Shown here one piece after another: positions 5,402-58,614 of a stretch of DNA of 64,000 bases. Each line of letters opens with the position of its first letter. The stretch's first letter is position 1. Below the pieces are notes generated by a model that saw only the letters and a program-made list of their open reading frames with translations, was not told the origin of the DNA and did not search any database. This stretch comes from Cenarchaeum sp. (lineage in GTDB: Archaea > Thermoproteota > Nitrososphaeria > Nitrososphaerales > Nitrosopumilaceae). The stretch is from the NCBI GenBank assembly GCA_963692915.1, contig OY843584.1, positions 448,001 to 512,000 of the forward strand, read 5' to 3'. The translations under genes and the position numbers were made by a program.

Positions 5402-5991
5402 CCGTCCAGCTGCCTTGATGCGCGAATGACGCGCTGCACTATTGTCACTCCCGCAAGGACGCACACGAGCATCATGGCATAGTCCATTATTGACGCCGTT
5501 TGGGCCAAGCCGGCAGCTATTGCTGCTACGGCTATTATGACCAGGCGCTCGGCCCGCTCGCCCACGCCAATGCCGGCGAGCCTCACGCCGAGCGACTCTG
5601 CCCTTGACCTAGTATAGCTCACGATGAGCGAGAGGGCCAGCGCGGTGATCACGAGGTGCGGTGAGGCAACGCCGCCGACCAGGATTGCGATGAATATGGC
5701 AGCCTCGGCGACCCTGTCTGAGACGGAGTCCAGGAACGCCCCACGCGCCGTCTCCCTGCCCGATGCGCGTGCGACCTGACCGTCGACGATGTCAAGGAAC
5801 CCCGAGGCGAGGAGCGCAACTCCGGCTAGTGCGATCGAGTGGCCAGAGTTGATCCCAAAGAGGGCTGCTGACACCAAGGCGGCCACAAGGCCGATCGCGG
5901 TCCATGCCGACGGCGATATGCCGGTGGCCGCAGCCGCACGCCCGAGGCGCCCCAGCGCCGGCGAGAGCGTCTTGCGCAGGCTGTCGAGCAT
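5398..5991 (-). CDS. CDP-alcohol phosphatidyltransferase (archaetidylinositol phosphate synthase-like)
   Basis: DIVDGQVAR...GAFLDSVSDR motif; SYTRSRAE; GERAERL. Confidence 0.9.
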   Translation of the reverse strand: MLDSLRKTLSPALGRLGRAAAATGISPSAWTAIGLVAALVSAALFGINSGHSIALAGVALLASGFLDIVDGQVARASGRETARGAFLDSVSDRVAEAAIFIAILVGGVASPHLVITALALSLIVSYTRSRAESLGVRLAGIGVGERAERLVIIAVAAIAAGLAQTASIMDYAMMLVCVLAGVTIVQRVIRASRQLDG

Positions 5992-6087
5992 CGTGGGGCA
6001 GGCGGCGCTCTTTTGTATTAAAGAGTGGCGGCACGCCGCACCAGGCGGCGCGCCCCTTATATCACGCCGCTCGCGACCCCGCGCGCG

Positions 6088-7401
6088 TTGGCCGTCGAGT
6101 CCCACTTTATCCAGACGATCATAGGGGTAGGAATACTCCTCGTGGCGGCCAAGCTCATGGCCGAGCTCTTTATGAGGATCCGCCTGCCCATAGTCCTCGG
6201 CGAGCTCCTCGCTGGCATGATCATAGGCCCATTTGCGTTCGGCGCGTTTCTGGTGTATGATGGTGAGCCGCTCCTGCAGCTCGGCAGCGAGCTGCGTGTC
6301 CTCGGGGAGATCGGCGCCATAGTTATCCTCTTTATGGCCGGAATGGAGATGACGCCCCGCGAGTTTTTGCGTGGCGGCAAAAAGTCGTTCACCGTTGGCA
6401 CAATAGGGGTCGTTCTCCCGTTTTTTGCCGGACTGTGGGTGTTTCAGGCATTCGGCTTTGATGCGCTCCAGTCGATGATGATCGCCACGGCACTCACCGC
6501 AACGAGCATAGCCATCTCGCTTCAGGTTCTCACCGAGTTTGGAAAGATAAAGACGCCCGAGGCGCGCCTCATCATCGGCGCGGCAATCGTTGATGACATT
6601 CTGGCAATTGCCGTCCTCTCGGTGGTCACATCGCTTGGCGCAGATGGGGGAATAGATTCCATCGAGCTGACTGACGTCGCAATAACCATAATGCAGGTTC
6701 TTGGGTTCTTTGCGGCAATGCTCATCTCTGCAGTGTTCATAGTTCCCAAGCTGGTCGCCCCCCGTCTGTGGCACGCAAAGGGCAGTGTCGAGGGCATTGT
6801 GACGGCAATATTCTTTGGCGCCGCAGCGATAGCTGGATCTATTGGACTCTCTCCCATAGTTGGCGCGTTTGCAGTCGGCATGGCGCTATCGACGACCAAG
6901 GTTATAGACAAGGTCGAGCACTTTATCAGCAAGGTGGGACTGATATTTGCGCCGCTGTTCTTTGCCATAATTGGCGCACAGGTTAACTTTATGGAGGTTG
7001 ACGGGACCATCCTTATGCTGAGCGGGGTCATGATCGTCATTGCCATTGTCACAAAGCTCTTTGGATGCGGCCTGCCGTCATGGTACTTTCTCAAGGACAA
7101 GGCGCAGGGAATGCGTGTCGGCATTGCGATGATCTCGCGCGGCGAGGTGGGCCTCATCGTCGCCGGCGTCGGTGTCTCCTCCGGGGTCCTGACGGGGAGC
7201 GTCTACTCGACGATCGTGATAATGGTGGCAGTCACGACAATAATCACGCCAATCTGGCTAAAGCTCGACTATGCCAAGAGGGACGGCGCGAAGCGCAAGG
7301 ACCGGTCAGACAACCCGCACGAGGGAAGGGAGTTTGTCTTTGTGCCGCCCGAGGACACGCCTATCAATGGCGAAGACATAGCGGATGGCCATAAGCCTTA
7401 A
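6088..7401 (+). CDS. Cation:proton antiporter (CPA2/NapA-like)
   Basis: LGELLAGMIIGP, TATSIAIS, AAIVDDIL, MISRGEV; about 12 TM segments; TTG start inferred. Confidence 0.9.
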   Translation: MAVESHFIQTIIGVGILLVAAKLMAELFMRIRLPIVLGELLAGMIIGPFAFGAFLVYDGEPLLQLGSELRVLGEIGAIVILFMAGMEMTPREFLRGGKKSFTVGTIGVVLPFFAGLWVFQAFGFDALQSMMIATALTATSIAISLQVLTEFGKIKTPEARLIIGAAIVDDILAIAVLSVVTSLGADGGIDSIELTDVAITIMQVLGFFAAMLISAVFIVPKLVAPRLWHAKGSVEGIVTAIFFGAAAIAGSIGLSPIVGAFAVGMALSTTKVIDKVEHFISKVGLIFAPLFFAIIGAQVNFMEVDGTILMLSGVMIVIAIVTKLFGCGLPSWYFLKDKAQGMRVGIAMISRGEVGLIVAGVGVSSGVLTGSVYSTIVIMVAVTTIITPIWLKLDYAKRDGAKRKDRSDNPHEGREFVFVPPEDTPINGEDIADGHKP

Positions 7402-9685: not shown

Positions 9686-11256
9686 GCGGCACGATCGGAC
9701 GGGGGACGTGGATAGACAAGCTCGCCTCGGAGCTAGTCGAGCGCGAGGTGTCACTTGGGCGCGACACCGGACTCCTCAGGGTCGAGAGCGGGCTTGGCGC
9801 CTCGGGCGTGCCGCACATCGGCAGCCTCGGCGATGCCGTCAGGGCATACGGCGTGAGCCTTGCGCTTGGAAACCTGGGGTACCGCTCCGAGCTAGTCGCA
9901 TACTCGGATGACCTCGACGGGCTGCGAAAGGTGCCGGCCGGACTCGAAGGGGCATCCCTTGAGGGGCAGATTGGCCGTCCCGTCTCGGACATTGCCGACC
10001 CGCACGGGTGCCACGAGTCATATGGCTCGCACATGAGCAGCCTCCTGCTCGAGGCCCTCGACACGCTAGGCGTGCCACACACGCACATTAGCGCGCAAAA
10101 GGCCTACGCGGAGGGCCGCTTTGCGGCCCAGACCGTCGCAATACTCGAGGCCGCCGACCGGATCGGCGCGCACATTGCAGACGCGACAGGACAGGACAAG
10201 TTTCGCGGAACGCTGCCGTACTGGCCGGTGTGTGACTCGTGCGGTCGGCTCTACACGGCAGTCGCGCGTGAGCATCTTGGCGCCGGCAGGATCAGCTATG
10301 AGTGCGTTGACGCCGAGATTGGCCATGCGCTGGTGCGCGGGTGCGGCCATGCCGGCGAGACTGACGCGACACGCGGACGTGGCAAGCTCGCCTGGAAGGT
10401 CGAGTTTGCCGCACGATGGACAGCGCTTGACGTGAGGTTTGAGGCGTATGGCAAGGACATCATGGACTCTGTGATGGTCAATGACTGGGTCTCTGAGAAC
10501 GTGCTGTCGCGCGCGCCGCCACACCACGTGAAATACGAGATGTTCCTTGACCGCTCAGGCGGCAAGATATCAAAGTCTTCGGGCAACGTCTTTACGCCCC
10601 AGGCGTGGCTGCGCTATGGCACACCACAGTCTCTCCTCCTCCTGCTCTTCAAGAGGATAAAGGGGGCGCGTCGCGTGGGCGTGGAGGACATACCGCAACT
10701 TATGGACGAGCTTGCGGGCCTAGAGCGCACCTATTTTGGAATTGTCGCCGAACCCAACGCCGAGCGCCTCGAGCGCCTCAGGGGACTCTACGAGTACGCG
10801 CACCTCCTAGACCCGCCTGATGCGCCGCAGGAACGCGCGCCATACTCGCTCCTCGTCGAGCTTGCGCGCGTGTTTCGGGACGACAGGGCGAATCTTGTCG
10901 CCAAAAAGCTCGTCGAGTACGGCACGATCAAGGAACCCGGTGATGGGCTAGCAGGGGCAATAGAGCTTGCCGGCAGGTACGCAGATGACTTTGGGGGTCA
11001 CGGGGAGGCTGACATGAAGGTTGAGGATGATGCCATGCGCGCAGCGCTATCCGAGCTGGCCGACGCCCTTGACGCGCAGGCCGACGCGCAGGATGCCGTG
11101 CGTGAGGCCTCGCGGCGCCACGGCGTGCAGCCGCGCGAGATGTTTCGCACAATCTACCTTATCGTCATAGGGGCACCGTCTGGCCCGAGGCTTGGCAAGT
11201 TTGTCCGTGACATTGGCGCAGCAAAGGTGGCCTCCATGATAAGGGGGAGCCTCTGA
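9682..11256 (+). CDS. lysS: Lysine--tRNA ligase, class I
   Basis: SGVPHIGS, GKLAWKVEFAARW, FEAYGKD, KISKSSGN, GPRLG. Confidence 0.95.
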   Translation: MSGTIGRGTWIDKLASELVEREVSLGRDTGLLRVESGLGASGVPHIGSLGDAVRAYGVSLALGNLGYRSELVAYSDDLDGLRKVPAGLEGASLEGQIGRPVSDIADPHGCHESYGSHMSSLLLEALDTLGVPHTHISAQKAYAEGRFAAQTVAILEAADRIGAHIADATGQDKFRGTLPYWPVCDSCGRLYTAVAREHLGAGRISYECVDAEIGHALVRGCGHAGETDATRGRGKLAWKVEFAARWTALDVRFEAYGKDIMDSVMVNDWVSENVLSRAPPHHVKYEMFLDRSGGKISKSSGNVFTPQAWLRYGTPQSLLLLLFKRIKGARRVGVEDIPQLMDELAGLERTYFGIVAEPNAERLERLRGLYEYAHLLDPPDAPQERAPYSLLVELARVFRDDRANLVAKKLVEYGTIKEPGDGLAGAIELAGRYADDFGGHGEADMKVEDDAMRAALSELADALDAQADAQDAVREASRRHGVQPREMFRTIYLIVIGAPSGPRLGKFVRDIGAAKVASMIRGSL

Positions 11257-11259
11257 GCC

Positions 11260-11460
11260 ATGGCATACCACGCGGGGCAGGGCGCGGGCCGGCGCAGCGG
11301 CGGCTTTTTCCTGATCATCCTCGGGGCGCTCACGTTTGTGACTGCGCCGATCTACCTCGCTGACTCGCCAAACCTCGGAATCGCCGCCATCATCGCCGGA
11401 TTTGCCGCCGGAGGCGCGGGGTTTTACCTAAGCTTTGTGCGTGGGAGGCGCAGGGCATGA
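11260..11460 (+). CDS. Small two-TM membrane protein
   Basis: Two hydrophobic helices; fits between lysS and the next ORF with ATGA overlap. Confidence 0.7.
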   Translation: MAYHAGQGAGRRSGGFFLIILGALTFVTAPIYLADSPNLGIAAIIAGFAAGGAGFYLSFVRGRRRA

Positions 11461-12338
11461 AAGCAACAAATTCGGGCAATCGCGCAGCCGGCGTCATGCG
11501 CTGGTTCCGACGCGGGGGCGATGATGACGGCAGTGGCGTGGAAGGCGACGACTCGCATGCCGACAAGCACGACGAGGGTCACGATGCCCAGGGGATACAG
11601 GAGACAGAGACTGCCCCTCCTGCTGATGCCGGCACGGACGCCTTGAGCGAGGATGAGCACCCAAAGGATGCCGACACTGCCATTGACGCGCGCACGGTCA
11701 CGGCGTCGCGCTCAATTGATGCGCTAAACGCCAAGCTCGAGAGCGTGAAAAAAGAGTATGACGGAGCAGTTGGGAGCCTTCTTGCGGCAAAGGGGGAGCT
11801 TGCGGCCAAGAGACGCGAGTCGACAGTTGCAAATGCCGCGTGCGAAAAGCTCAAAAAAAGGGCTGACGAGCTTGACGCGCAGATCAGGGAATCAGAGCTC
11901 CAGTATGCCGAGGTTCGCTCAAACCTGCGAAGTCGCGAGGACGCAAGCAGCGAGCTTGCAAGGGTTAACACGGAGCTTGACTCTAGGCAGCGTGCGCTAG
12001 AAGAGCTCAACTCAAAGATCGCCGAGGCCGCATCAGAGCTTGACGGAATTGCGCAAAGGCGCAAGGCTGCCGAGGCAGAGCTCAAAAAGTTTGGCGAGCT
12101 GCTCCAAAAGACACGATCAATGATCAAAGAGTCCAACAAGGCCTCGCAGGCAAAACCTGGAGGTGGAGCCGATGTCATGCGCGCTGCAAGCTCAATGGTC
12201 GCATCGCTCAACGACAGGATTGATGCGGCGGACAAGGAGATTGCAACACTTCGCGCCTTGCTCGAAAAGGAGAGACGCGAGCACACAAAGTCCAAAAAGC
12301 GCCTTGAAGAGCTGGCGCATGATGACGATGCCGACTAG
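11457..12338 (+). CDS. Long coiled-coil protein with an acidic disordered N-terminus
   Basis: D/E-rich first 80 aa followed by continuous heptad-rich helix. Confidence 0.8.
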   Translation: MKATNSGNRAAGVMRWFRRGGDDDGSGVEGDDSHADKHDEGHDAQGIQETETAPPADAGTDALSEDEHPKDADTAIDARTVTASRSIDALNAKLESVKKEYDGAVGSLLAAKGELAAKRRESTVANAACEKLKKRADELDAQIRESELQYAEVRSNLRSREDASSELARVNTELDSRQRALEELNSKIAEAASELDGIAQRRKAAEAELKKFGELLQKTRSMIKESNKASQAKPGGGADVMRAASSMVASLNDRIDAADKEIATLRALLEKERREHTKSKKRLEELAHDDDAD

Positions 12339-12781
12339 TGCATGCCATAACGCCGCGTCCATGCCTCGCGTATCTCCTCCTCGCGCATTCCGGTGTCATA
12401 CAGCGGCGATGTCACCTCCGAGATCGACTCTACGTCAACTATTGCGACTGCCTTGATGTGACTACGAACTCCCATCTCAGAGTAGGCGCGCATCGCATCC
12501 TCAAACTCGGGGCCAGAGGCGCAAGCGCGGGCCTTTCCGACAAAGAGGTACCCGCGACGTGAGAGCGGGTCTATTGCGCTAATCTCGACTGCGGGGTTTT
12601 TGGCAATGTTTGCCATGGTGTCTGGCGAGCGAATGTCCGCAAAGGCTAGGTGTGAAGAGCCAAGCGGGACTATGGTTCCCTTTGGCGAGACATTTGGCCT
12701 GCCGGCAGGGGAGACTGTGGCCACAAACCCGAGGCGCACGCGCTTGAGAAATGCGGCAATCTCGGGGGTTATCTCGGGCAA
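12335..12781 (-). CDS. Pyridoxamine 5'-phosphate oxidase-like FMN-binding protein
   Basis: FVATVSPAGRPNVSPKG, FADIRSPDTMANIAKNP; TTG start inferred. Confidence 0.85.
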   Translation of the reverse strand: MPEITPEIAAFLKRVRLGFVATVSPAGRPNVSPKGTIVPLGSSHLAFADIRSPDTMANIAKNPAVEISAIDPLSRRGYLFVGKARACASGPEFEDAMRAYSEMGVRSHIKAVAIVDVESISEVTSPLYDTGMREEEIREAWTRRYGMH

Positions 12782-12972
12782 TGAGCCTCGCTCAGGGCAT
12801 GCCTGATTTAACGCAACCGCGCCCAGGGTGCGTGTGCGTGCAAGGGCATGCCGGCGCGATGCCACACGCCGCATGGCAGGCAGCGGATCCACGTGCTACG
12901 CCCCATGACCTTTTAAGGCGATGCGCACTCATACCAACGCTTTAAACCATGCCGACTTGCCACATGCGCGAA

Positions 12973-14661
12973 ATGGCAGAGATGATGGGAGCCACGGCAC
13001 TCATGCACGCCCTCGACGGAGAGGGCGTAAAGCAGGTCTTTGGGCTTCCCGGTGGGGCCAACCTGCCAATGTATGACGAGCTCTCAAAGTCTGACATACG
13101 CCACATACTAGTGCGCCATGAGCAATCCGCTGCGCACATGGCCGACGGCTTTGGTCGCGTCAGCCGCAAGCCTGGCGTCTGCTTTGCGACATCCGGACCC
13201 GGCGCAACAAACCTCCTAACCGGAATCGCGACGGCGTACGCCGACTCGGCTCCAATGGTGGCAATCACGGGCCAGGTTCCGGTAAAGATGATTGGGCGTG
13301 ACGCATTTCAGGAGAGTGACATTATAGGAATGGCAAACCCTGTCGTAAAGTACGCGTTCCAGCCTCGCGCACCAGACGAAATTCCAGAATCGACCAAAAA
13401 GGCGTTCTTTATCGCCGAGACGGGCAGGCCTGGACCGGTTCTCGTTGACATTCCCAAGGACGTGCAGACTGATACTGCCGAGATGACGTTTCCAGACGAG
13501 TTTCGCATACGCGGATACCATCCATGGACGGATCCTGACATACCTAGCATCGAGCGCGCCATAGACCTCCTCCTATCATCAGAAAAGCCCGTGATACTTG
13601 CCGGCGGCGGGACAATAATATCCTCGGCATTCGCCGAACTGCAGGCGATAGCCGAGATGCTCCTGATACCCGTTGCGACAACGTTCAAGGGCAAGGGCGC
13701 CTTTCCCGAAAACCATGCGCTATCCCTCGGGCCAATCGGCATGCACGGGCATGCAGAGGCCAACAAGATAATGACCGAGGCTGACTGCGTACTTGCTATA
13801 GGGACACGCTTTTCGGACAGGTCTGTCGGGACGTTTGAGGAGTTTGAAAAGAACCTAAAGATCATACACATGGACGTGGATCCGGCCGAGATTGGCAAGA
13901 ACCAGAAGACAAGCGTCGCCGTCGTCGGTGACGTGCGCTCGTCGTTGCGCATCATGGTAAAGATGCTCCAAAAACGGTCTCCCTCGGCGCGTGAGGAGGG
14001 CGCCTGGGTTCGTCACGCAAAGGAGACGCGCGACTATTGGCAGGAAAACCTAAAGATTCCAAGCGGCGAGATGGTGGCATCGCGCATACTAAAGCGTCTG
14101 CGCGACGTTCTGCCAGCCGAGTCAATAGTGACCACGGAGGTCGGGCAGCACCAGATGTGGGCCTCGCTCTTTTACAATGTCATTGAGCCTGGCACGTTCT
14201 TTAGCTCTACAGGGCTTGGAACCATGGGGTGGGGCTTTCCTGCGGCCATTGGGGCCAAGGTCGCGCGCCCTGATGTGCCCGTAATTGACATTGCCGGCGA
14301 TGGCAGCTTTAACATGACAGAGAACTCGCTGGCAACGTCGGTGACTGAGGACATCCCGGTAATCGTGTTCCTCATCAACAACTATTTGCTCGGCATGGTC
14401 GCGCAATGGCAGCGCACGTTCTATGAGCGCAGGATGATAGGAGTTGACCAAAAGGAGTGTCCTGACTATGTAAAGCTCGCCCAGGCGTATGGCGCCGAGG
14501 GCATCAAGGCTGAATCGCTCGACGAGATTGGTTCGGCCGTACGCACCGCGCTGTCGAACAACGTGGCAACGGTGATTGACATACCAATAAATCCGGAGGA
14601 GGACGTGCTTCCGTTTGTGGCGCCAGGAACGCCGCTGCGGGACATGATCCTGCCGTCGTGA
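12973..14661 (+). CDS. ilvB: Acetolactate synthase large subunit
   Basis: VFGLPGG, RHEQSAAHMADG, TSGPGATN, GRPGPV, GQHQMW, GDGSF ThDP motif. Confidence 0.97.
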   Translation: MAEMMGATALMHALDGEGVKQVFGLPGGANLPMYDELSKSDIRHILVRHEQSAAHMADGFGRVSRKPGVCFATSGPGATNLLTGIATAYADSAPMVAITGQVPVKMIGRDAFQESDIIGMANPVVKYAFQPRAPDEIPESTKKAFFIAETGRPGPVLVDIPKDVQTDTAEMTFPDEFRIRGYHPWTDPDIPSIERAIDLLLSSEKPVILAGGGTIISSAFAELQAIAEMLLIPVATTFKGKGAFPENHALSLGPIGMHGHAEANKIMTEADCVLAIGTRFSDRSVGTFEEFEKNLKIIHMDVDPAEIGKNQKTSVAVVGDVRSSLRIMVKMLQKRSPSAREEGAWVRHAKETRDYWQENLKIPSGEMVASRILKRLRDVLPAESIVTTEVGQHQMWASLFYNVIEPGTFFSSTGLGTMGWGFPAAIGAKVARPDVPVIDIAGDGSFNMTENSLATSVTEDIPVIVFLINNYLLGMVAQWQRTFYERRMIGVDQKECPDYVKLAQAYGAEGIKAESLDEIGSAVRTALSNNVATVIDIPINPEEDVLPFVAPGTPLRDMILPS

Positions 14662-48939: not shown

Positions 48940-49037
48940 CGCGCAGCACAATTGCGTGCGATAACTAAAACCTTGCCTTGCGAGAGGCGTGGGGGGCTGC
49001 CGCATGGCGGTTCAGTCCGAGCATGGCGCGTGCAGGC

Positions 49038-49406
49038 CTAGACTGGTAGGGTTACCTCTCCCCTGAACTCGCGCAGGCCGTCAATGTCCATGTCTTCGAG
49101 GAGGCGCTTTTTTTGCTCCTCGGTGACGTTTTGCACAATGGCCTTTGCCATGCCCTCCGAGTCAACTAGGGCAAGAAGATACCCGCCTCCGTCAGCGAGG
49201 ACAAACCCCGGCGCGTCTGACACAAAGGCGTACATCGTCTCCTCGCCAACAGGCTCCCATGACGCGCTGTTAGTCGTGTTGCGAAGCGCGAGTGCCGGAA
49301 GCGCGCCATCACCGGCGATCGCGCCGAGATAGTCGCGTGCCTTGGCCACTCTCTTCTGTCCCACCTTTAGGGCTGTAAAATAGCGCATTCTAGCGTGCTC
49401 ACGCAT
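49038..49406 (-). CDS. Hypothetical protein
   Basis: Compact ORF with protein-like composition, co-oriented with its neighbours. Confidence 0.7.
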   Translation of the reverse strand: MREHARMRYFTALKVGQKRVAKARDYLGAIAGDGALPALALRNTTNSASWEPVGEETMYAFVSDAPGFVLADGGGYLLALVDSEGMAKAIVQNVTEEQKKRLLEDMDIDGLREFRGEVTLPV

Positions 49407-49443
49407 CGCCGCTGATATAATTGTGTGGGGGGGATCTATGCAC

Positions 49444-49761
49444 TCACTTGTTGCCGCGAGGCGCCCCGACCATGTCCCCTTCGGAGACGTCCTGATCCCA
49501 TGTCCCCCTTGCGCCCTTGACTAGGGAAAATCCAGACGCGCACACTAGCGCAATCGGCAGCGCGATGGCCCATGTGCTCTCTGCGAGAACCTCGTCGCAG
49601 TCACGCGCGGCACTGCCCGAGTCGCCAAAGTTGCGGCATTTCTCGAATGCCTCGGCCTGCGTGACCGCATCGACATACACAGACCCAAATGCCCCAAAGG
49701 TGACCAGTGCGGCAAACGCAAGCGCGACGCCGGCAACAACAAATCTCATGTCGCTCATCAC
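49444..49761 (-). CDS. Two-TM membrane protein with a Cys pair in the loop
   Basis: Two hydrophobic helices flanking EKCRN...RDCDE. Confidence 0.7.
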   Translation of the reverse strand: MMSDMRFVVAGVALAFAALVTFGAFGSVYVDAVTQAEAFEKCRNFGDSGSAARDCDEVLAESTWAIALPIALVCASGFSLVKGARGTWDQDVSEGDMVGAPRGNK

Positions 49762-50231
49762 GCTGCGCCCTCGATACGCCTCTTTAGGCTCCCAAGTGAT
49801 GTCGTGTAGAGCGTGCCAAGCGACGTGGCGACACGGCCAAACTCGCCGCTAGTGGCCTCTGCACCAAAATAGGATCTCCACGTGACGCGCGCGGCTCCGC
49901 GCCCTGCTGGCACTATTCCAATTGTCGCGTGATACGAGTCTAGCGGAAGCCCGTCTAGCATGATATACGATATGTACTTGCCCTCGACCCATCCGACGAT
50001 CCTCTCGCTTACGACTGTCCCGTCATCAAACATTATTGTCCGCCCTGCGCCTATCCCGTTGCGGACCGAAGAGTGCGCCTTGACTCCCTTTACCCCGCTG
50101 ACCCACCGGCCCAGCTCCATCACCTTGCTGACACTTGCCCATACCGCCCGCGACTCGGCCCTGATGAGCACGCTGCGGCTAACGGTGCCGCTCCGGTGAG
50201 CCTTTGCCGAGCCTTTGGCCATATGCCGCAT
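49758..50231 (-). CDS. SRPBCC/START (polyketide cyclase-like) protein
   Basis: VW, GIGAGRTIMF, ERIVGW..G..ISY, C-terminal SLGSLKRRIE. Confidence 0.85.
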   Translation of the reverse strand: MRHMAKGSAKAHRSGTVSRSVLIRAESRAVWASVSKVMELGRWVSGVKGVKAHSSVRNGIGAGRTIMFDDGTVVSERIVGWVEGKYISYIMLDGLPLDSYHATIGIVPAGRGAARVTWRSYFGAEATSGEFGRVATSLGTLYTTSLGSLKRRIEGAA

Positions 50232-50298
50232 GTGCAGGCGCGCCTCGTATTAAATCTTGAAAAAACGCATAAAACTCCCCACTGCACGAGGGGCGTCA

Positions 50299-51588
50299 AT
50301 GGTATTTGGATGGAAAAAAAAGGCACCTCCTGCCGAGCCTGAACGCATGGAGGCCCCGCGCGAGATAGACGTCTCTGACATCGGCGCCGAGCTCGACCGC
50401 CTGTCCTCGGCTAGACGTGACCGTCTCGTCAGTGACGCAAAATCGCTAGTCGGAGGTATCGGCAGTGGACTAGGCGACATGCTCGGGATGGTCGAGCAGC
50501 TCGAACGCGAGGAGCTCATCGAGGAGGAGACTGACAGACACATACGCGCAATTGTGGATCGCGGCAAGAGGCAGGTCATCGCGATAATCCGGAGGGAGGC
50601 AAAAGCCGGAATTCCGGATGTGCGCGAGTATCCTGACGTCATAGAGGCCAACCGCGAGGCTCACCGCATACTAAAGATCATAGGTGATGTCCTTGGAAGA
50701 CAGACGCGAGTTATCCACATATTTGCAAAAAAGTATGCGACGCGCCTAAAGTCCACACTATCGACACTCAACTCAAAAAAGGACGAGCTCGCGCACGCCG
50801 TACGTGACCACGAGTCATTTGAGTTGTCTGTCCGGGACATCCGTGAACGCATAATTGCCCTTGATGATCTGCGTGAGCGTGCGCTCAACTCGTCAGGACG
50901 CGTGACTGCAATTGTCGAGGAACTGCGCGCTAAGCGCAAGGTGCAGCAGGGCGCATCTGAAAAAATATCGACGATTATGTCGACACCCGAGTTTGCCGAG
51001 CACTCTGCACACCTCGATGCGCTCAAAAAGATCGATGCCGAACGAGCCGTGCTTGATCGGGAGATTGGCGGATCCTTTGCCAGGATAAGCCGCCCACTCT
51101 CAAAGTACGTCTATGTCACCTCGCTTGACAAAGAGAAAAAGACTGTCATGGCTCGAATGCTTGACGAGCCGGCAACGGCCCTGCGCGAGTCCGGCCCTGA
51201 TATCGTTCTTGACATACTTGTTCACGTTAGAAAGGCAGTCTCGTCGGGCTCTGTATCCGTAAAGGACATCTCAAAATCCGAGGAGCAGATCGATGCGGTG
51301 TCCGCAGGTCTTGAAGAGTTTGTCTCGCGCATGGGGTCATTAGAGTCGCGCAAGGGCGAGATTGTCGACCGTGTTCGCTCTTTTGACTCTTCACAGCTTG
51401 ACTCTGCACGCGCAACGCTCGAGAGGACAACGTCTGACATTGCCTCACTAGAGTCACACGAGCGCGAGATTCGGGCTGATGCCGTGGCCGCCGAGGCCGA
51501 GATTCCCTCGGCCCTCAAGGCACTAGAGTCGCGTATGCGCGCCGTGACGTCAGTTGCGTATACCGTCCGGATGCCCGATATTCGGTGA
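50299..51588 (+). CDS. Long helical/coiled-coil hypothetical protein
   Basis: Heptad-rich; internal FARISRPLSKY segment; no Walker motifs seen. Confidence 0.8.
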   Translation: MVFGWKKKAPPAEPERMEAPREIDVSDIGAELDRLSSARRDRLVSDAKSLVGGIGSGLGDMLGMVEQLEREELIEEETDRHIRAIVDRGKRQVIAIIRREAKAGIPDVREYPDVIEANREAHRILKIIGDVLGRQTRVIHIFAKKYATRLKSTLSTLNSKKDELAHAVRDHESFELSVRDIRERIIALDDLRERALNSSGRVTAIVEELRAKRKVQQGASEKISTIMSTPEFAEHSAHLDALKKIDAERAVLDREIGGSFARISRPLSKYVYVTSLDKEKKTVMARMLDEPATALRESGPDIVLDILVHVRKAVSSGSVSVKDISKSEEQIDAVSAGLEEFVSRMGSLESRKGEIVDRVRSFDSSQLDSARATLERTTSDIASLESHEREIRADAVAAEAEIPSALKALESRMRAVTSVAYTVRMPDIR

Positions 51589-51594
51589 TCCAGT

Positions 51595-51677
51595 GCCCGC
51601 CCGGCGGCCTTCCGGGGACTCCCTGATCTGCGCCCGGCAAGCATTCCTGCCCACTCCACTACTTTTCGTACAAGGCA
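51595..51677 (-). mobile_element. Orphan left end of the IS481-family element
   Basis: Reverse complement TGCCTTGTACGAAAAGTAGTGGAGTGGGCAGGAATGCTTGCCGGGCGCAGATCAGGGAG matches 59027 onward with few mismatches. Confidence 0.88.
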
Positions 51678-52276
51678 GGCGTGCGACCTGTGGCAATCCC
51701 TACATATTGCCAAAATCACGCCTAGATGCTGTATGGGCCGCCACTACTGACTGCTCGCGTTTCTTCGCCTGGGGGAGCCATAGACACGTGCTGAGAGGCG
51801 GGAAAACTCGACGATCGGCCTGATGGGCCATGTTCATCATATGGGCGTGTCTGCTGCTGCGCAAGAGTCGCAGTTGGCGTACGAGGGTGCTGTTGCAACA
51901 CTGCCATCAGATCCCAGTTGATGCCCCAACGCCGCAAAAGGGGTGCTTTGCGTATGGTGGTGATAGTGCGGCTTGTGTGGCATGGTTGTGCACAAGCATA
52001 CGGCACACATTCTCGGCAATGTGGATGCTTTGATCAGATGAGTTTCAAAAGACTGGTCATTTCGCAATATCAGCATTGTGGATGGCCGTCGATCTGAGGC
52101 CGTGTGCTGATCGGCATTTTAGGGACAGGGTCACAAGGTGCGTAGGGGTGATGTTCCCTTAGAGGACGGCAGGCGGGGATCAGCGCCAACACGCCCAACG
52201 CGACAGGATCCGGCCGGATCACGGATCGTCAGGCGGACACGCCGTGGATTGCCTCCTTTTGGGCGGATCCGGCCGC

Positions 52277-52287
52277 TTTGTATAAAT
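52277..52287 (+). promoter_or_regulatory. TATA-box-like element for rps8e
   Basis: TTTGTATAAAT about 25-30 nt upstream of ATG 52311. Confidence 0.55.
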
Positions 52288-52310
52288 TAGAGCCAATGTG
52301 GGGGTGCGCC

Positions 52311-52691
52311 ATGAGAAAGTCGATGGAGAATCTTGCCACGAGCAAGATCACCGGGGGACGCAGGAGGCCGCTGAGGATACGGCGCAAGTACGAGATAGAC
52401 CGCTATCCAAACGAGGCACCGGCCGGCCCGCAGGCGACTGTCACGCGCAGCACGCGCGGTGGCGTGCTAAAGACTGCGCTAAAGGCAGCCGACTATGCAA
52501 ACCTCACTGCTCCCGGAGCAAAGACAGTTCGCACAAAGATACTAAAGGTTCTTGACAACCCAACTAACAACGACTATCGTCGGCGTGGAATCATCACGCG
52601 CGGCGCCGTACTCGAGACGGAGGCCGGCAAGTGCAGGGTCGTCTCGCGTCCCGGACAGGACGGCGCAGTCAACGCAGTGCCTGTGCAATGA
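52311..52691 (+). CDS. rps8e: 30S ribosomal protein S8e
   Basis: KITGGRR, RKYE, TRGG, IITRGAV, SRPGQDGAVNAV. Confidence 0.96.
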   Translation: MRKSMENLATSKITGGRRRPLRIRRKYEIDRYPNEAPAGPQATVTRSTRGGVLKTALKAADYANLTAPGAKTVRTKILKVLDNPTNNDYRRRGIITRGAVLETEAGKCRVVSRPGQDGAVNAVPVQ

Positions 52692-52996
52692 AGGACTATG
52701 ATCACATAGTCGTTTGGCTGGACTATTTCAACAAGACCATAACGAGGGCAAAGGGCCGGCGCCTTGGCCGCGAGAGCTGTGTCTTTGACCCGTCGCTCGC
52801 CGAGCTCGAGGGAGCCGCCAAGGCTGCGGGCCTTGAGGTCTCGGCATCCGAGTCCTCGGTGAGGTACCCGCGGCGCCAGTATGTTCGCTCGGGCTATATC
52901 ACGGTGCCAAAGTCGGCCTCAAAGTCATCCCTCCTTGCGACCATCGCCTCGCGCCTGGTCGAGGCGCGAGCTAGGCGCAAAAAAGATCGCTCCTAG
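52688..52996 (+). CDS. srp19: Signal recognition particle 19 kDa protein
   Basis: VVWLDYFNKTITRAKGRR, DPSLAEL, RYPR, SKSSLL. Confidence 0.92.
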   Translation: MKDYDHIVVWLDYFNKTITRAKGRRLGRESCVFDPSLAELEGAAKAAGLEVSASESSVRYPRRQYVRSGYITVPKSASKSSLLATIASRLVEARARRKKDRS

Positions 52997-53058
52997 CTCT
53001 AAGATCAAGTATTTTTGACCGGACCCTTATGATATAGGGTGTATTGACCCCCCGTCAC

Positions 53059-54315
53059 TTGCAGGAGGTAGGACACGTTACACATGTCGCAAAAAGCGGA
53101 AGGGTCATCGTTGAGCTGGCAGCCTCGGTCAGGGACGGGACGGTTCTGTGCGACAGCCTGGGGACTCGCCTCGCGCGCGTGATGGAGACGATAGGCCCGG
53201 TCTCGCGTCCATTCGCCTCGGCTAGCCCGATAACCAACAACATGTCGCCGCATGTCGGCAAGGGGATATTTGCGATTGACGAGGAGCGCGCCGCAACACG
53301 GTACGAGAGCCGCACGCAGACAAATGATGCCGATGACAATGGTGGCGAGCCCCAGACAGAACGTTCCGAGCACACCTCGAGCACGTCACGCGAGGAGCGC
53401 ACACCTGCACGGCGTGAAGGTGGCGGATCGCGCTCGCGTGGCCAGGGCAGGTACTCTGAGCGTAGGGGACCGGCACGGCGCGACTCTTCCTCAAAGTCTG
53501 GACGCAGCGACGGCCGGCGCACTCCACGGCGCGACGGCGGTTCAGGCTCGCGTGGCCAGGGCAGGTACTCTGGGCGCGGCGGTCCGGCGCGGCGCGACTC
53601 CTACTCAAAGTCCGGCAGCGACGGCGGTTCAGGCTCGCGTGGCCAGGGCAGGTACTCTGGGCGCGGCGGTCCGGCGCGGCGCGACTCCTACTCAAAGTCC
53701 GGCAGCGACGGCGGTTCAGGCTCGCGTGGCCAGGGCAGGTACTCTGGGCGCGGCGGTCCGGCGCGGCGCGACTCCTACTCAAAGTCCGGCAGCGACGGCG
53801 GTTCAGGCTCGCGTGGCCAGGGCAGGTACTCTGGGCGCGGCGGTCCGGCGCGGCGCGACTCCTACTCAAAGTCCGGCAGCGACGGCGGCCAGGGCAGGTA
53901 CTCTGATCGCAGGGGTCCGGCGCGGCGCGACTCCTACTCAAAGTCCGGCAGCGACGGCGGTTCGGGCTCGCGTGGCCAGGGCAGGTACTCTGATCGCAGG
54001 GGTCCGGCGCGGCGCGACTCCTACTCAAAGTCCGGCAGCGACGGCGGTTCGGGCTCGCGTGGCCAGGGCAGGTACTCTGATCGCAGGGGTCCGGCGCGGC
54101 GTGACAGCTATTCGTCATCATCTCGCACGGGACCTCGCGGTGACGGCAGGCGCGCACCACCACGGCGCGGTCCGGCTCGACGTGACACAGGTGCGAGGAC
54201 GGCGCGCGAGGAGGGCAGTCGTGGTGCACCGCGCAACAATGTCACTTTTAGATCACGTGGATTGGACAGCAGGGGCACCGGCCGCCGCGACAGGAGCGGG
54301 AGGCGACGCGAATGA
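53059..54315 (+). CDS. gar1: H/ACA RNP protein Gar1/Naf1 with a long RG/RS-rich repeat tail
   Basis: VGHVTHVAKSGRVIV and ARVMETIGPVSRPF Gar1 core; located directly upstream of tfb. Confidence 0.85.
   Translation: MQEVGHVTHVAKSGRVIVELAASVRDGTVLCDSLGTRLARVMETIGPVSRPFASASPITNNMSPHVGKGIFAIDEERAATRYESRTQTNDADDNGGEPQTERSEHTSSTSREERTPARREGGGSRSRGQGRYSERRGPARRDSSSKSGRSDGRRTPRRDGGSGSRGQGRYSGRGGPARRDSYSKSGSDGGSGSRGQGRYSGRGGPARRDSYSKSGSDGGSGSRGQGRYSGRGGPARRDSYSKSGSDGGSGSRGQGRYSGRGGPARRDSYSKSGSDGGQGRYSDRRGPARRDSYSKSGSDGGSGSRGQGRYSDRRGPARRDSYSKSGSDGGSGSRGQGRYSDRRGPARRDSYSSSSRTGPRGDGRRAPPRRGPARRDTGARTAREEGSRGAPRNNVTFRSRGLDSRGTGRRDRSGRRRE
53416..54114 (+). repeat. In-frame tandem repeat, 87-bp unit (29 aa), about 8 copies
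   Basis: Units start at 53533, 53620, 53707, 53794, 53881 (72-bp deleted variant), 53953 and 54040, with a degenerate copy at 53416. Confidence 0.97.
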
Positions 54316-55256
54316 GCCGACTCGAGATTCCGACATGCGCCGAGTGCAGCAGCACGTCACTCATTGACGACCTCGAGCGCGGCGAGACGGTCTGCCAGTC
54401 ATGTGGGATTGTCGCAGCAGACCAGATGGTTGACCATGGTCCAGAAACCGCACGTACGGGATATGAGGACAAGATGAACCTCGCGCGCGCGTCAGGAACG
54501 ATGACATACTCGCAGCATGACCTTGGGTTGTCCACGACCATAGCGACCACGTCGAGGGACTTTAGCGGCAAGTCGATAGGCTCTGACACGGCCTCGACGA
54601 TGAGGCGCCTTGACAAGTGGCAGTCGCGCGTGCGCGTGACGAGCAACACCGAGAGGCGCCTGGTCGGCATGCTCTCAAAGCTCGGCGACGTGTGCCGTAG
54701 CATGGACCTGCCTAACAACGTCCTGGAGACGGCCTCGATGATATACCGTGACCTTGACGGCAAGGCAGTCAAGGGGCGCCACATCGACAGCATGGCCGTC
54801 GCAACAGTCTACATGGCATGCCAGCGGTGTGAGATCGTCAGGTCACTTGAGGACATCTGCCGCAGCTTTTGCGACCCGCGCGAGATCCGCTCAAAGACAA
54901 AGCTCGCCGCAAAGTACTATCGTGACATGCGCCTCAGCATGGAGACGACACCGACCATATCAGTCACGATGGATCGGCGAATATCGCAGATAGCCAACAT
55001 CACGAGGACAGACCCGCGCGTTGAGCGCCTCGCGCTCAAGATAGCAGACAAGACGAGCAATGGCGGGTTTGCCGGCGGCAAGACGCCGCAGGGAATAGCT
55101 GCGGCGTACCTTTATGTCGCCTCGATCCTGCGGGGCCAGAGTGTCCTGCAGCGTGACATCTCGTCTGTCGCACAGGTCACAGAAGTGACGATTCGCAGCC
55201 GCTGCAAGGATCTCCTGGCAAGCTATCGTCTCGTCGTAAGGCTTTCGCCTGCATGA
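54312..55256 (+). CDS. tfb: Transcription initiation factor IIB
   Basis: CAEC...GETVCQSCG Zn ribbon, DHGPE, HDLGLST, two cyclin repeats, GKTPQGIAAA, VTEVTIR. Confidence 0.95.
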   Translation: MSRLEIPTCAECSSTSLIDDLERGETVCQSCGIVAADQMVDHGPETARTGYEDKMNLARASGTMTYSQHDLGLSTTIATTSRDFSGKSIGSDTASTMRRLDKWQSRVRVTSNTERRLVGMLSKLGDVCRSMDLPNNVLETASMIYRDLDGKAVKGRHIDSMAVATVYMACQRCEIVRSLEDICRSFCDPREIRSKTKLAAKYYRDMRLSMETTPTISVTMDRRISQIANITRTDPRVERLALKIADKTSNGGFAGGKTPQGIAAAYLYVASILRGQSVLQRDISSVAQVTEVTIRSRCKDLLASYRLVVRLSPA

Positions 55257-55318
55257 CGCGTTAGGGTTAGCTAAGATACGCCAATGCTATATAACTCGGG
55301 AAGGGAGCCTCATGCCAG

Positions 55319-56089
55319 TTGGCACGCCTAGAGATACGAGACCTGCACGTAAAGCGCGAAGGCAAGGAGATCCTAAAGGGGGTAAACCTCACGACCGGTC
55401 CGGGTGAGGTTCATGCGATAATGGGGCCCAACGGCTCTGGCAAGTCCACCCTTGCCTACACGCTGCTCGCGCACCCAAAGTACGAGGTCGTCTCCGGTGA
55501 CATACTCCTTGACGGCGAGAGCATCATGGGCATGTCTGCTGATGAGCGCTCAAGAAAGGGCCTCTTTTTGGGGTTCCAGTACCCCGTCGAGGTATCTGGC
55601 GTCGGCTATTCGCACTTTTTGCGCACGTCATACAACTCGCTCAGCAAGGCTATACAGGGCGATGAGCGCGAGGTCTTTATCACGGTTCGCGAGTTCCAAA
55701 AGTACCTAAAGGAGAACCTTGCGCGCGTTGGGCTAAAGGACGAGTTTTTGAGCCGCTACCTCAACGAGGGATTTTCGGGAGGCGAGAAAAAGCGCTCCGA
55801 GGTCCTGCAGATGGCAGTCCTCAAGCCAAAGGTGTCGATACTCGACGAGCCAGACTCGGGACTCGACATTGACGCAGTTCAGGCAGTCGCCAAGGCGATA
55901 AGCGAAGTGTCAGGCAAGGACTCGACGGTCATCGTCATAACGCACTATGCGCGAATACTAAAGTTCCTCAACAAGCTCGATCACGTCCACGTCTTCGCCG
56001 AGGGCCGCGTGATCAAGAGCGGCGACGCATCCCTTGCAGACGAGCTAGAGTCAAAGGGGTACGAGTGGGCAATAACGTCGGCGCCATAG
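55319..56089 (+). CDS. sufC: Fe-S cluster assembly ATPase
   Basis: HAIMGPNGSGKST, FQYPVEV, NEGFSGGEKKR, DSGLDIDA, ITHY. Confidence 0.96.
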   Translation: MARLEIRDLHVKREGKEILKGVNLTTGPGEVHAIMGPNGSGKSTLAYTLLAHPKYEVVSGDILLDGESIMGMSADERSRKGLFLGFQYPVEVSGVGYSHFLRTSYNSLSKAIQGDEREVFITVREFQKYLKENLARVGLKDEFLSRYLNEGFSGGEKKRSEVLQMAVLKPKVSILDEPDSGLDIDAVQAVAKAISEVSGKDSTVIVITHYARILKFLNKLDHVHVFAEGRVIKSGDASLADELESKGYEWAITSAP

Positions 56090-56381
56090 GCAATACTGCA
56101 CTATCCCTGCCCCTTGGGCACACTCGCTCATCCCGCTATTGCGCCTTGGCTCCTGGCTGCAGGGCCTTGTTCCTACGGACTTTGGGTCGGCTCTACGCCA
56201 GTTGGAACATTTGAGCCTGTGCGTGCCGTGCCACCGGCCTGCCAACACCGAACATGGACACGCTGCCCCGGCCATGCGTGAGCATACCGGCCGCATGACT
56301 GCAAGACGCCACGTGCGCGCCCGTGCAGGCGTGGTGGATCACCGAGCTTAAAATATCCCGTCACTTGCCGCCTCGCTGTCA

Positions 56382-57086
56382 ATGGACGATTCTGGCACGC
56401 AGGGTGGGGCAGAGGCAGCACCAACATGGTTTTACACGCATGCGTTCTTCAAGGTGGACCCAAAGTGGCGCTGGATGGCCGACCTTGCAAAGTCCGAGTC
56501 CGCAAAGGAGGTCGAGGCGACGATGGCCTCATCAGGCGTGCGCTTTAGGACATACTCGACGCTGGGCCTGCGCGATGACTCTGACATCCTGTTCTGGTTT
56601 GTCTCCGAGTCAGTCGAGCAGATGCAGGAGGCGATATCGCGGCTGTACCTGACGGTGTTTGGCAAGTATATCGCACCATCGCGCTCGTACCTGTCATGCT
56701 CGCGCCCCTCGACGTACTCGGGGGGCTCTGGCAAGAGCACGACGTCATTTGCGGACAGCTCCGAGGCGCGCCGCTATGCCATAGTCTACCCGTTCACAAA
56801 GACGCGCGAGTGGTATCTCCTGCCGATGGCGCGCCGGCGCGAGATGATGGCCGAGCACATACGCGTGAGCCAACAGTATCCTGACATACTCCTCAACACG
56901 ACATACTCGTTTGGCATACACGACCAGGACTTTATGCTCGCCTTTGAGACTGACAGCCTAGTGGACTTTCAGAGCCTAATCGTGGACCTGCGCGCCACTG
57001 CCGTCTCGGCCTATGTAAAGTCTGACACGCCGATGATCGTCTGCGTAAAGAAGGACATTGTTCCGCTTGTAGAGAGCCTGGGCTGA
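56382..57086 (+). CDS. Chlorite dismutase / coproheme decarboxylase family heme protein
   Basis: YSTLGLRDDSD, YPFTKTREWYLL, MAEH, TTYSFG. Confidence 0.9.
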   Translation: MDDSGTQGGAEAAPTWFYTHAFFKVDPKWRWMADLAKSESAKEVEATMASSGVRFRTYSTLGLRDDSDILFWFVSESVEQMQEAISRLYLTVFGKYIAPSRSYLSCSRPSTYSGGSGKSTTSFADSSEARRYAIVYPFTKTREWYLLPMARRREMMAEHIRVSQQYPDILLNTTYSFGIHDQDFMLAFETDSLVDFQSLIVDLRATAVSAYVKSDTPMIVCVKKDIVPLVESLG

Positions 57087-57628
57087 TGCGCGCGCTAAAG
57101 GAGTGGTCATCGGTGGTTCGCGCGCTAGAGGACGGCGCGCAGAGCGTCATACTGCGCAAGGGCGGCATTCACGATGATGCCGGAGGCATCACGTTTGGCA
57201 GCGGCGCATTTGCGCTGTTTCCGACACACGAGCACCAGGACGCCTCGGCCATAAAGCCAGAGTTTCGGCACTATCTTGAGGAAGGCGTGCCGCACGGCGA
57301 CTCGTTCAACACGGTTCGCTCGTATGCCACAGTCATCGCAACATCCGAGGTCTGGCCTGGCCCTGCACTCGATGCGCTCTCGCCGATGCACATATGGAGC
57401 GATGACTATGTCTCAAAGCGTGCGGCGTGGAAGCCCGAGAGGCCAATATGGGCAGCGCTATTGCGCGCTCACAAGGCCGCCGAGTCGCGAGTCCAGACGG
57501 GATCCGAGCATGCCGGATGCAAGTCGTGGATCGACGTTGGGTGCGAGCTCGGCGGGGGCGAGCCGGCACTTGGGGACAGTGAGGCAGCCTCTGCGCAAGA
57601 GGCATTCAAGGTGGCACTCAAGCAATGA
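57086..57628 (+). CDS. DUF1802 family protein
   Basis: ALKEW, GAQSVILRKGGI, LFPTHEHQ, GCKSWI. Confidence 0.9.
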   Translation: MRALKEWSSVVRALEDGAQSVILRKGGIHDDAGGITFGSGAFALFPTHEHQDASAIKPEFRHYLEEGVPHGDSFNTVRSYATVIATSEVWPGPALDALSPMHIWSDDYVSKRAAWKPERPIWAALLRAHKAAESRVQTGSEHAGCKSWIDVGCELGGGEPALGDSEAASAQEAFKVALKQ

Positions 57629-58614
57629 AGTACAGGAGGCTTGGGCGCAGCGGCATCCGCGTCTCGGAGATCGGGTTTGGCGCATGGGCCATAGCCATGG
57701 ACTGGTGGGGCAAAAAGATCGAGGAGGACGAGGCGATTCGCATGATAAAGAGGGCCTATGACCTCGGGATTAACCTCTTTGAGACTGCTGACATGTATGG
57801 CCGCGGCAAGAGCGAGCGCCTCCTTGGCCGCGCACTAGATGGCGTGCGCGAGGAGGTCGTCATATCGACAAAGTATGGCTATGACTTTGCCAACGCCGAG
57901 CAGATCGGCCACTCGGAGCTCCCGCAGTCCTTCTCTGAAGACTTTACGCGTGCTGCGCTGCGCGCAAGCCTTGAGCGACTAAAGACGGACCACGTCGACG
58001 TGTATGGCCTGCACAACCCAAAGATAGGGCATATCAGGGACGACTCGATATTCGCGACGCTCTCGTCGTTAATTTCCGAGGGCAGCACTCGCGCGTGCCA
58101 GGTCGCACTCGGACCGGCTATAGGCTGGACGCGCGAGGGCCTTGAGGCGATGGACAGACCCGAGGTCTCGGCGGTCCAGACAGTCTATAACATACTAGAG
58201 CAGACACCGGGCAATGAGCTTGTGACGCGCGCATCAGACGCGGACGTCGGCATTCTCGTCAGGGTTCCGGACGCCTCGGGCATACTGACGGGCAAGGTGG
58301 GCGCAGACACAAAGATAGACGAAAAGGACCACCGCTCTGTCAGAAAGGGAGAGTGGATACGCGCATCGCTTGCAAAGGTCGAGGAGATTCGCCCGATAGC
58401 CGAGTCCAATGGCCTCAGAATTGACGAGCTCGCCATAAAGTTCCTCCTCTCGCGCGACGCAGTCTCCTCTGTCCTGCCGACCGTGGTGAGCGAGGCGGAG
58501 ATCGAGTCGTTTGCGGCAATGTCTGACGGGCAAAGCCTTGGAGGGTCTGACATGGACGAGATTGCGCGCCTCTACTCGTCATGGCCGGCGTATGACCTAA
58601 AGGCATCCGCATAG
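57625..58614 (+). CDS. Aldo/keto reductase
   Basis: LGRSGIRVSEIGFG, ETADMYG, SLERLKTDHVD, YNIL. Confidence 0.93.
   Translation: MKYRRLGRSGIRVSEIGFGAWAIAMDWWGKKIEEDEAIRMIKRAYDLGINLFETADMYGRGKSERLLGRALDGVREEVVISTKYGYDFANAEQIGHSELPQSFSEDFTRAALRASLERLKTDHVDVYGLHNPKIGHIRDDSIFATLSSLISEGSTRACQVALGPAIGWTREGLEAMDRPEVSAVQTVYNILEQTPGNELVTRASDADVGILVRVPDASGILTGKVGADTKIDEKDHRSVRKGEWIRASLAKVEEIRPIAESNGLRIDELAIKFLLSRDAVSSVLPTVVSEAEIESFAAMSDGQSLGGSDMDEIARLYSSWPAYDLKASA

Follow-up and report, generated by a model that had tools for sequence, protein, structure and literature searches.

The window analysed here is a stretch of 64,000 nucleotides from Cenarchaeum sp. (assembly GCA_963692915.1, contig OY843584.1, positions 448,001 to 512,000 of the forward strand), and it carries a gene, gar1, for the Gar1 protein of the H/ACA pseudouridylation ribonucleoprotein (RNP). 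The gene product is a real, recently amplified, polycationic variant of this known protein. A small Gar1 core (residues 1-73) is followed by a tail of about 345 residues that AlphaFold2 predicts to be disordered, in agreement with a preliminary description of the sequence. The tail is a low-complexity segment that grew in place by in-frame tandem duplication of units of 72-87 bp, the last round being very recent. The gar1 frame on the plus strand is uninterrupted from TTG 53044 or TTG 53059 to the stop codon TGA at 54313-54315, which gives a protein of 423 or 418 residues. The genome of the window is referred to as G000 and the other genomes of the same genus as G001, G002, G003 and G004. The parts of the gene are as follows.

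53059..54315, plus strand: gar1 coding sequence, 418 residues and the stop codon, with an alternative TTG at 53044.
53059..53277, plus strand: Gar1 beta-barrel core (residues 1-73), identified by profile, PF04410, fold and the ratio of non-synonymous to synonymous substitution rates (dN/dS).
53278..53439, plus strand: acidic/polar linker (residues 74-127) with one predicted helix (residues 75-86).
53440..53553, plus strand: repeat unit 0, degenerate, 38 residues, YSERRG; its position is shared with G001.
53554..53886, plus strand: repeat units 1-4 of the YSGRGG type, 87, 87, 87 and 72 nucleotides, 100% identical DNA; the type is not in G001.
53887..54147, plus strand: repeat units 5-7, all YSDRRG; unit 5 equals unit 6, and unit 7 has a degenerate end that G001 shares.
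54148..54312, plus strand: unique basic C-terminal region ending in GRRRE, the counterpart of the GGRRR and KKFRRRKK ends of short Gar1 proteins.

The identity of the amino end was evaluated by profile and structure comparison. When the single 418-residue sequence was compared with PF04410, the score was 18.4 bits (E 0.0019), under the curated cut-off of 29.3; the genome scan gave 22 bits, and the NCBIfam Gar1 equivalogs matched the window protein at E 4e-5 at best, far under their cut-offs. The preliminary identification as Gar1 nevertheless held, although the single sequence falls under the curated threshold. A profile made from the alignment of 20 orthologous cores from 20 genomes matched Gar1 of Pyrococcus furiosus over the full length (2hvy_B at E 3e-10, then 3mqk_C, 2ey4_C and 2rfk_C). 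All 20 cores matched PF04410 at E<=0.01, and the orthologue at locus L006 was over the cut-off with 31.9 bits. The AlphaFold2 model, computed from a 23-row alignment, had a predicted local distance difference test score (pLDDT) of 93-96 for residues 1-70 and a single helix at residues 75-86. A Foldseek search of the PDB with the core returned the Gar1 chains of 2EY4 and 2HVY at the top, with a template modelling (TM) score of 0.89-0.91 on the target and a root-mean-square deviation of 1.2 Å across 73 columns, so that the core has the six-stranded beta-barrel of Gar1; chains of Naf1 and of eukaryotic Gar1 ranked behind the archaeal ones. On the sequence and model comparisons the assignment of the N-terminus to Gar1 is secure.

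The scan of the G000 genome found one Gar1 locus, and the partners Nop10 (83.3 bits), Cbf5 (TruB_N, 56.4 bits, in an open reading frame (ORF) of 366 residues) and L7Ae (99.3 bits) are also encoded there. The window gene is thus the sole Gar1 gene of G000. Its product, predicted to be the subunit that binds Cbf5 in the H/ACA pseudouridylation RNP, has an intact and strongly conserved barrel core. The window protein shares the beta-barrel core, the partner set and a short basic C-terminal end with P. furiosus Gar1 (2EY4, 2HVY). In contrast to the latter, it is 4-5 times longer and has about 345 extra disordered residues before the basic end.

The repeat array was defined by splitting the tail at the word GQGRYS, which yields 8 units. 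Tandem Repeats Finder reported two stretches with a period of 87 bp, one of 4.2 copies (53527-53888) and one of 2.5 copies (53887-54105), each at 99% match. The two analyses bear out what had been described earlier, namely about eight copies, four of the YSGRGG and three of the YSDRRG type, with one 15-bp deletion; the 72-nucleotide YSGRGG unit is an in-frame 15-bp shortening of the 87-nucleotide unit. No further copy of the 87-bp unit was found in the 1.64-Mb G000 genome. The pLDDT was <50 for 302 of the 418 residues. The tail, taken as 346 residues, consists of 23% R, 22% G, 19% S, 8% D and 5% each of A, Y and P, with 1.2% hydrophobic residues. It has 85 basic and 40 acidic residues (net charge +45; the isoelectric point of the whole protein is 11.5), and it contains 80 Arg, 16 Tyr and 20 RG, 17 GR and 17 RS/SR dipeptides. 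By this composition the tail is an arginine-rich, Gly/Ser-spaced, tyrosine-bearing polycation that is neither a canonical RGG box nor an RS domain.

The recency of the growth is seen in the DNA of the units. Units 1-4 are 100% identical and units 5-6 are identical to each other, as expected of the recent in-frame tandem duplication proposed at the outset. The YSGRGG type is exclusive to G000, where its four identical copies are the source of the RGG triplets. The G001 tail has 7 units of 24-30 residues with YSDRRG or YSDRKG that have diverged from one another (75-bp period, 88% match). Since the synonymous divergence between G000 and G001 is 0.15-0.57, the four identical units indicate that the latest amplification is far younger than the split of these two genomes, or else that the copies have been homogenised. 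The protein is also variable in length, as had been suggested, with 418 residues in G000, 377 in G001, and 196, 203, 212 and 226 in G003-like forms. A repeat family common to the genus was considered and rejected, since neither the G003 tail (E 8.5) nor that of G002 is significantly similar to the G000 tail. The tails of G003 and G002 are similar in the last 18 residues only (E 0.002). No relative of the tail was found among 8000 scored candidates of 232-741 residues, and an Atlas feature search gave no usable one.

Substitutions between G000 and G001 were analyzed by the Nei-Gojobori method in the ungapped parts of the alignment; the array was omitted because its units could not be paired one to one. 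The core had a dN/dS of 0.022, while the unique parts of the tail had 0.22 in the Gar1 frame, 1.3 in frame +1 and 2.9 in frame +2. The two tail segments gave similar values, 0.24 for the linker segment (residues 76-165, including repeat unit 0) and 0.19 for the C-terminal segment (the last 75 codons, ~54088-54312, including most of unit 7). The changed codons were 13 synonymous and 1 non-synonymous in the core, 8 and 7 in the linker, and 18 and 12 in the last 56 residues. For the unique parts of the tail as a whole, there were 35.5 synonymous and 23.5 non-synonymous changes, and the differences at codon positions 1, 2 and 3 numbered 15, 9 and 35. Of the 59 changes, 36 were synonymous where a share of 0.278 was expected (p = 1e-7); with a deliberately generous share of 0.40 the excess still has p = 9e-4. 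All length differences between G000 and G001 are multiples of 3, and the GRRRE end is kept. Frame +1 was tried as a coding frame because it is stop-free in all four long forms, yet its dN/dS above 1 led to its rejection. A dN/dS of 0.22 that is specific to the Gar1 frame indicates that the tail is translated and constrained. The substitution pattern thus argues for translation in the Gar1 frame under purifying selection weaker than that on the core.

The assembly was compared with Logan contigs of 4 sequencing runs from 2 studies. The contigs cover 53197-53540, from the end of the core into the first repeats, and 54072-54368, from the last repeat through the gar1-tfb overlap, with 0 differences in either interval. 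No contig bridging the array was found among the 4 runs, and 53656-53709 was uncovered in all four. Word depth was higher on unitigs of the array, a signal that was given no weight. The copy number of 8 units rests, therefore, on the single-contig assembly (1,644,826 bp, 99.86% completeness) and on G001, whose array is independent and organised in another way. In the interval 52900-53500 of the window, the runs X1, X3 and X4 contained two haplotypes together, one equal to the window and the other with G001-like substitutions; of the 20 substitutions in the second haplotype, 14 are at third codon positions of gar1.

The distribution of the tail was determined in related genomes. The Gar1 core was present in 41 of the 41 genomes searched, and open frames >180 residues occurred in 4 of these, all from the window's genus (G000, 425; G001, 384; G003, 219; G002, 186). 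The frame was 110 residues in G004, the fifth member of the genus, and 74-139 residues in the other 36 genomes. The tail is accordingly a lineage-specific gain, as first proposed, with 37 of 41 related genomes at <=139 residues and the four long forms in one genus. Counted from the conserved start, the Gar1 lengths are 418 (G000), 377 (G001), 206 (G003), 179 (G002) and 92 residues (G004), and 83-92 residues at 15 loci from other genera. A basic C-terminal patch (KKFRRRKK, GGRRR or GRRRE) was found on every Gar1 that was read, at 20 loci and in further homologues, and there is no space for an intervening gene. The same TTG start, the ATGA overlap with tfb and the basic ends indicate that the tail grew in place between the core and an ancestral basic end and did not arise by gene fusion. 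A TFB tree with a midpoint root covered 17 of the 20 loci, without G000, G002 and G018, whose loci had no downstream frame >200 residues. G004 was sister to G001 plus G003, with support of 100/100 and 100/98, a topology that fits a gain of the long tail after the split from G004.

Broader searches showed the rarity of the long forms. In a sample of 401 genomes evenly drawn from the phylum, 220 matched, and among the 150 matches listed only G000 exceeded 170 residues, the next lengths being 166, 160, 153, 151 and 139. A search of 1.84 billion representative proteins gave 302 matches at E<=0.001; in the best 150 of these the longest was a G003-like protein of 212 residues, followed by 146, 145 and 144. 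A word-based search for longer Gar1 forms recovered 6 proteins, all of them G003-like (196, 203, 212 and 226 residues) or G002-like (179 and 182 residues), and the spread of these lengths indicates that tail length varies in natural populations. No Gar1 form of 232-741 residues sharing the core words was found in the public protein collection.

Shorter basic tails of 50-70 residues are present on several Gar1 proteins of uncultured archaea (P0017, P0136 and P0141, and loci L041, L043 and L044, the latter from three genomes of one other genus). Several of these are G/R-rich with RGGGGGG runs. They resemble the window's tail in being basic, G/R-rich and at the same C-terminal position, but are five times shorter, have no long near-identical units and are unrelated in sequence. 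These sequences suggest that G/R tails on archaeal Gar1 arose more than once and that the tail of G000 and G001 would be the extreme of a recurrent tendency.

An RGG domain is made up of clustered RGG/RG repeats a few residues apart (tri-/di-RGG or tri-/di-RG boxes). By this measure the window's tail does not qualify, since it has 4 isolated RGG triplets in G000, one per 29-residue unit, and 0 in G001. The RS domain is likewise no match, the 17 RS/SR dipeptides in 346 residues being too sparse and none of them in runs. The likeness to eukaryotic GAR1 (yeast Gar1p, human GAR1) lies in the combination of a Gar1 core with an Arg/Gly-rich, disordered, repetitive extension. In contrast to the two-armed eukaryotic protein, the window Gar1 has the C-terminal arm only and starts at the conserved LQEVG without an N-terminal extension; its tail has 45% G+R together with 19% S, 8% D and 5% Y, the composition having been determined for the archaeal tail alone. 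The tail differs further in having an independent origin within one archaeal genus. That independence from the eukaryotic GAR arms, asserted earlier, is upheld. The description "eukaryote-like RG/RGG" therefore goes too far: the tail is Arg/Gly-rich and disordered, but the spacing of its few triplets, their absence from G001 and the single arm do not agree with it.

The window's tail also resembles RS-type domains and the Arg/Tyr "sticker" low-complexity regions of the FUS-family, LAF-1 and DDX4 proteins. Like them it is of mixed charge, is predicted to be disordered and has many Arg and Tyr residues spaced by Gly and Ser; there is no homology.

In reviews, archaeal Gar1 proteins are said to "lack both GAR regions" (PMC7991803), and RGG domains are described as eukaryotic, their role in H/ACA particles being elusive (PMC8096250). 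The latter links the RGG arms of eukaryotic Gar1 to accessory RNA binding and phase separation and states that deletion of the RGG domain alters RNP dynamics and turnover (PMC8096250). By analogy with the eukaryotic protein as presented in these reviews, the window's tail would be likely to provide accessory RNA contact (PMC8096250, PMC7991803). The earlier statement that archaeal Gar1 is the core only agrees with the same reviews (PMC7991803, PMC8096250) but goes too far in view of the basic patch on all the proteins read and the G/R tails of 50-70 residues. In the full-text literature as far as it was accessible, supplements aside, no description of a Gly/Arg-type tail on archaeal Gar1 was found.

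Other proteins of RNA modification carry extensions in these genomes. Cbf5 of G000 (G000:C1:963605-964702, minus strand; L029) has about 35 extra C-terminal residues rich in D, G, P and E. Cbf5 of G001 contains 13.3 copies of a 24-bp unit at 100% (L030:1227-1545) that encode 13 GDGAPDST units, and the other Cbf5 family members end directly after the conserved KKWRT-type motif. Nop5 (G000, L026:2126-3460, minus strand; G007, L040) has a basic C-terminal tail of about 80 residues, rich in R, G, S and D and containing the words RRDS and GRRDG. This tail occurs throughout the family at a constant length, the open frames being 415-455 residues in most relatives. This archaeal C/D RNP counterpart of the KKE/D tails of eukaryotic Nop56/58 is like the Gar1 tail in occurring in the same genome, in its R/G/S/D-rich composition and in sharing short words. 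The Gar1 tail is, by contrast, genus-restricted and length-variable, without significant similarity to that of Nop5. Homology of the two tails was rejected, the shared words GSRGQG and RRDS being compositional (BLASTP E 0.76). The top RG-dense ORF of the genome, of 466 residues (G000:C1:792065-793477, minus strand; L025:566-1966), has an RGG/RG-rich C-terminal tail of about 90 residues; judged by eye from its translation, it reads like a DEAD-box helicase. The tails of Cbf5, Nop5 and the putative helicase, together with the tandem arrays of the genome, fit a remodelling of the rRNA-modification particles and a genome-wide tolerance of repeats equally well.

The neighbourhood of gar1 contains the following features.

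52631..52996, plus strand: srp19, the upstream neighbour (Pfam SRP19, E 2.4e-14).
53015..53036, plus strand: conserved upstream motif (TTGAC...TTATGATATA), present in the 20 gar1 loci read.
54312..55256, plus strand: tfb (transcription factor B), whose ATG at 54312 overlaps the gar1 stop codon as ATGA.

Genes for S8e and SRP19 precede gar1 in the window. In 19 of the 20 orthologous loci gar1 starts with a TTG at the LQEVG position, and words of the form TTGACnGAA...TATGATA lie about 25-45 nucleotides upstream of the TTG start (20 loci read, including L002-L020). To judge by its sequence and placement, the motif is probably the B recognition element (BRE)/TATA promoter for a gar1 mRNA that is leaderless and has a start codon other than ATG. 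The downstream gene matched Pfam TFIIB (E 1.8e-24), the TFIIB zinc ribbon and NCBIfam TFIIB (E 2.4e-71). With these family matches and the overlap of ATG 54312 with TGA 54313-54315, the gar1 frame is open up to tfb just as originally reported; the ATGA overlap was found in 19 of the 20 loci. Locus L004 (G002) has no open frame >200 residues after the overlap, unlike 17 other loci, and a frameshift or assembly problem in tfb of this draft genome may be the cause. The interval 51589-52277 of the window (about 690 bases, between a 443-residue ORF and the S8e gene) holds only short overlapping ORFs of 50-94 residues. An Rfam scan of 49000-58000, this interval included, found no family at gathering score and no overlapping RNA gene. 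Identical frames of 122 and 222 residues occur three times near the ends of the G000 contig (G000:C1 ~4382-7206, 10586-13410 and 1638958-1643374), suggesting that a segment of several kb is repeated.

The preferred reading, for which we consider the balance to be about even, is that the tail would provide additional multivalent, non-specific binding to RNA next to the substrate channel of Cbf5, perhaps together with RNA-dependent clustering. The tail would be an exaggerated form of the basic end on every Gar1 read, and Cbf5, by holding Gar1, would hold the tail beside the substrate channel. In this position it would most likely strengthen the binding of the H/ACA particle to rRNA or pre-rRNA in a multivalent, non-specific way, and the 80 Arg and 16 Tyr on G/S spacers may promote RNA-dependent clustering. 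Such a role would match that discussed for the eukaryotic GAR/RGG arms and would have been reached independently. Several observations weigh against it. A core-only yeast Gar1 is reported to suffice for essential functions (PMC7991803). The RGG triplets are few in G000 and missing in G001, and none of the 8 sequencing runs from 5 studies that were found to contain the locus is recorded as RNA. Three unrelated low-complexity sequences occupy the same Gar1 site within one genus; the tail sequence is thus not conserved in the genus, and any selection acts on composition and not on a motif.

The last point is also the first in favour of the main rival, in which replication slippage or unequal recombination lengthens low-complexity C-termini in a repeat-prone symbiont genome that is rich in GC and under weak selection, the tail being tolerated but without a specific function. 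Selection would then just keep the tail soluble, basic, non-hydrophobic and in frame for the translational coupling of tfb, and part of the constraint described above could indeed protect only this coupling, for which the ATGA overlap speaks, and protein solubility. The G000 genome has 45 tandem arrays with a Tandem Repeats Finder score >= 100, of which 36 have a period divisible by 3. Perfect arrays in G000 include a 12-bp unit in 13.9 copies (583174) and an 18-bp unit in 5.7 copies (951439), besides the array in Cbf5 of G001, and in-frame repeat growth looks common in G000. The scattered lengths of the G003-like forms and the unusual richness in disorder reported for Cenarchaeum symbiosum (PMC2880407) point the same way. 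On the other hand, keeping the frame open would not by itself account for a dN/dS of 0.22 confined to the Gar1 frame, and the neighbours S8e, SRP19 and TFB are not obviously inflated, as judged by ORF lengths alone and without orthologue comparison. Moreover, tail length does not track GC content, the G002 and G003 loci being richer in GC (69-71%) than those of G000 and G001 (62-63%) but encoding shorter tails. This explanation is a serious possibility, which we would nonetheless sooner doubt than accept.

A pairing of charges, in which the basic Gar1 tail and the acidic Cbf5 tail serve self-masking, assembly control or complex coacervation and the Gar1 tail is not mainly an RNA binder, is quite unlikely. 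The acidic extensions of Cbf5 in G000 and G001, where other members stop at the KKWRT-type end, would suit it, as would the direct binding of Gar1 to Cbf5 in the solved structures 2ey4 and 2hvy. However, G000 combines the longest Gar1 tail with a short Cbf5 tail, and G003 and G002 have long Gar1 tails with little Cbf5 extension. Very unlikely is an artefact, meaning a mis-assembled array, a wrong copy number or a real protein that terminates behind the core. The unbridged array and the stop-free frame +1 would allow it, as would the public collection of 15 billion proteins, in which eight start and frame versions of the window ORF and three of that of G001 were not found. The collection also lacked the one SRP19 start version that was looked up exactly, while it contained the window's exact TFB protein. 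There is no in-frame stop anywhere, G001 is an independent chromosome-level genome whose differently organised array is still in frame, and the flanks of the array agree without differences with contigs from two studies; the single-contig G000 assembly is itself nearly complete. Horizontal transfer of a eukaryote-like domain, for example from an RG-rich protein of the host, is disfavoured and has hardly any probability in our estimation. Its sole basis is the loose compositional resemblance to eukaryotic RG/RS-rich regions, and against it stand the lack of any match to the tail in the candidate and Atlas searches, the placement of the tail at the very site of the basic end in relatives, the origin of the repeat units from one another and the GC content at third codon positions, which at 0.71 equals that of the core and neighbours.

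A farther-reaching possibility is that the archaeon re-invented a nucleolus-type chemistry, in which the tails of Gar1, Cbf5 and Nop5 would drive RNA-dependent condensation of H/ACA and C/D particles round nascent rRNA. We regard this as unlikely. If it were true, the series from a basic end of 15 residues, through G/R tails of 50-70 residues and R-rich tails of 100-130 residues, to the repeat tail of 345 residues would serve as a living model for the origin of the eukaryotic C-terminal GAR arm by tandem duplication of an ancestral archaeal basic tail.

The finding represents a natural and very recent gain of an arm on an ordinary archaeal Gar1, against the reviews that call Gly/Arg regions eukaryote-specific (PMC7991803, PMC8096250). 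It comes with graded relatives (92, 179, 206, 377 and 418 residues), evidence of purifying selection and an oppositely charged repeat tail on the catalytic partner. Since recombinant proteins suffice to reconstitute H/ACA particles of archaea, the effect of a long, basic, disordered arm on RNA binding, turnover and clustering is directly testable and could show how the low-complexity arms of the eukaryotic nucleolus began. If the tail is neutral, it would still be a clean example of fast in-frame repeat growth inflating a core information-processing protein in a symbiont genome.

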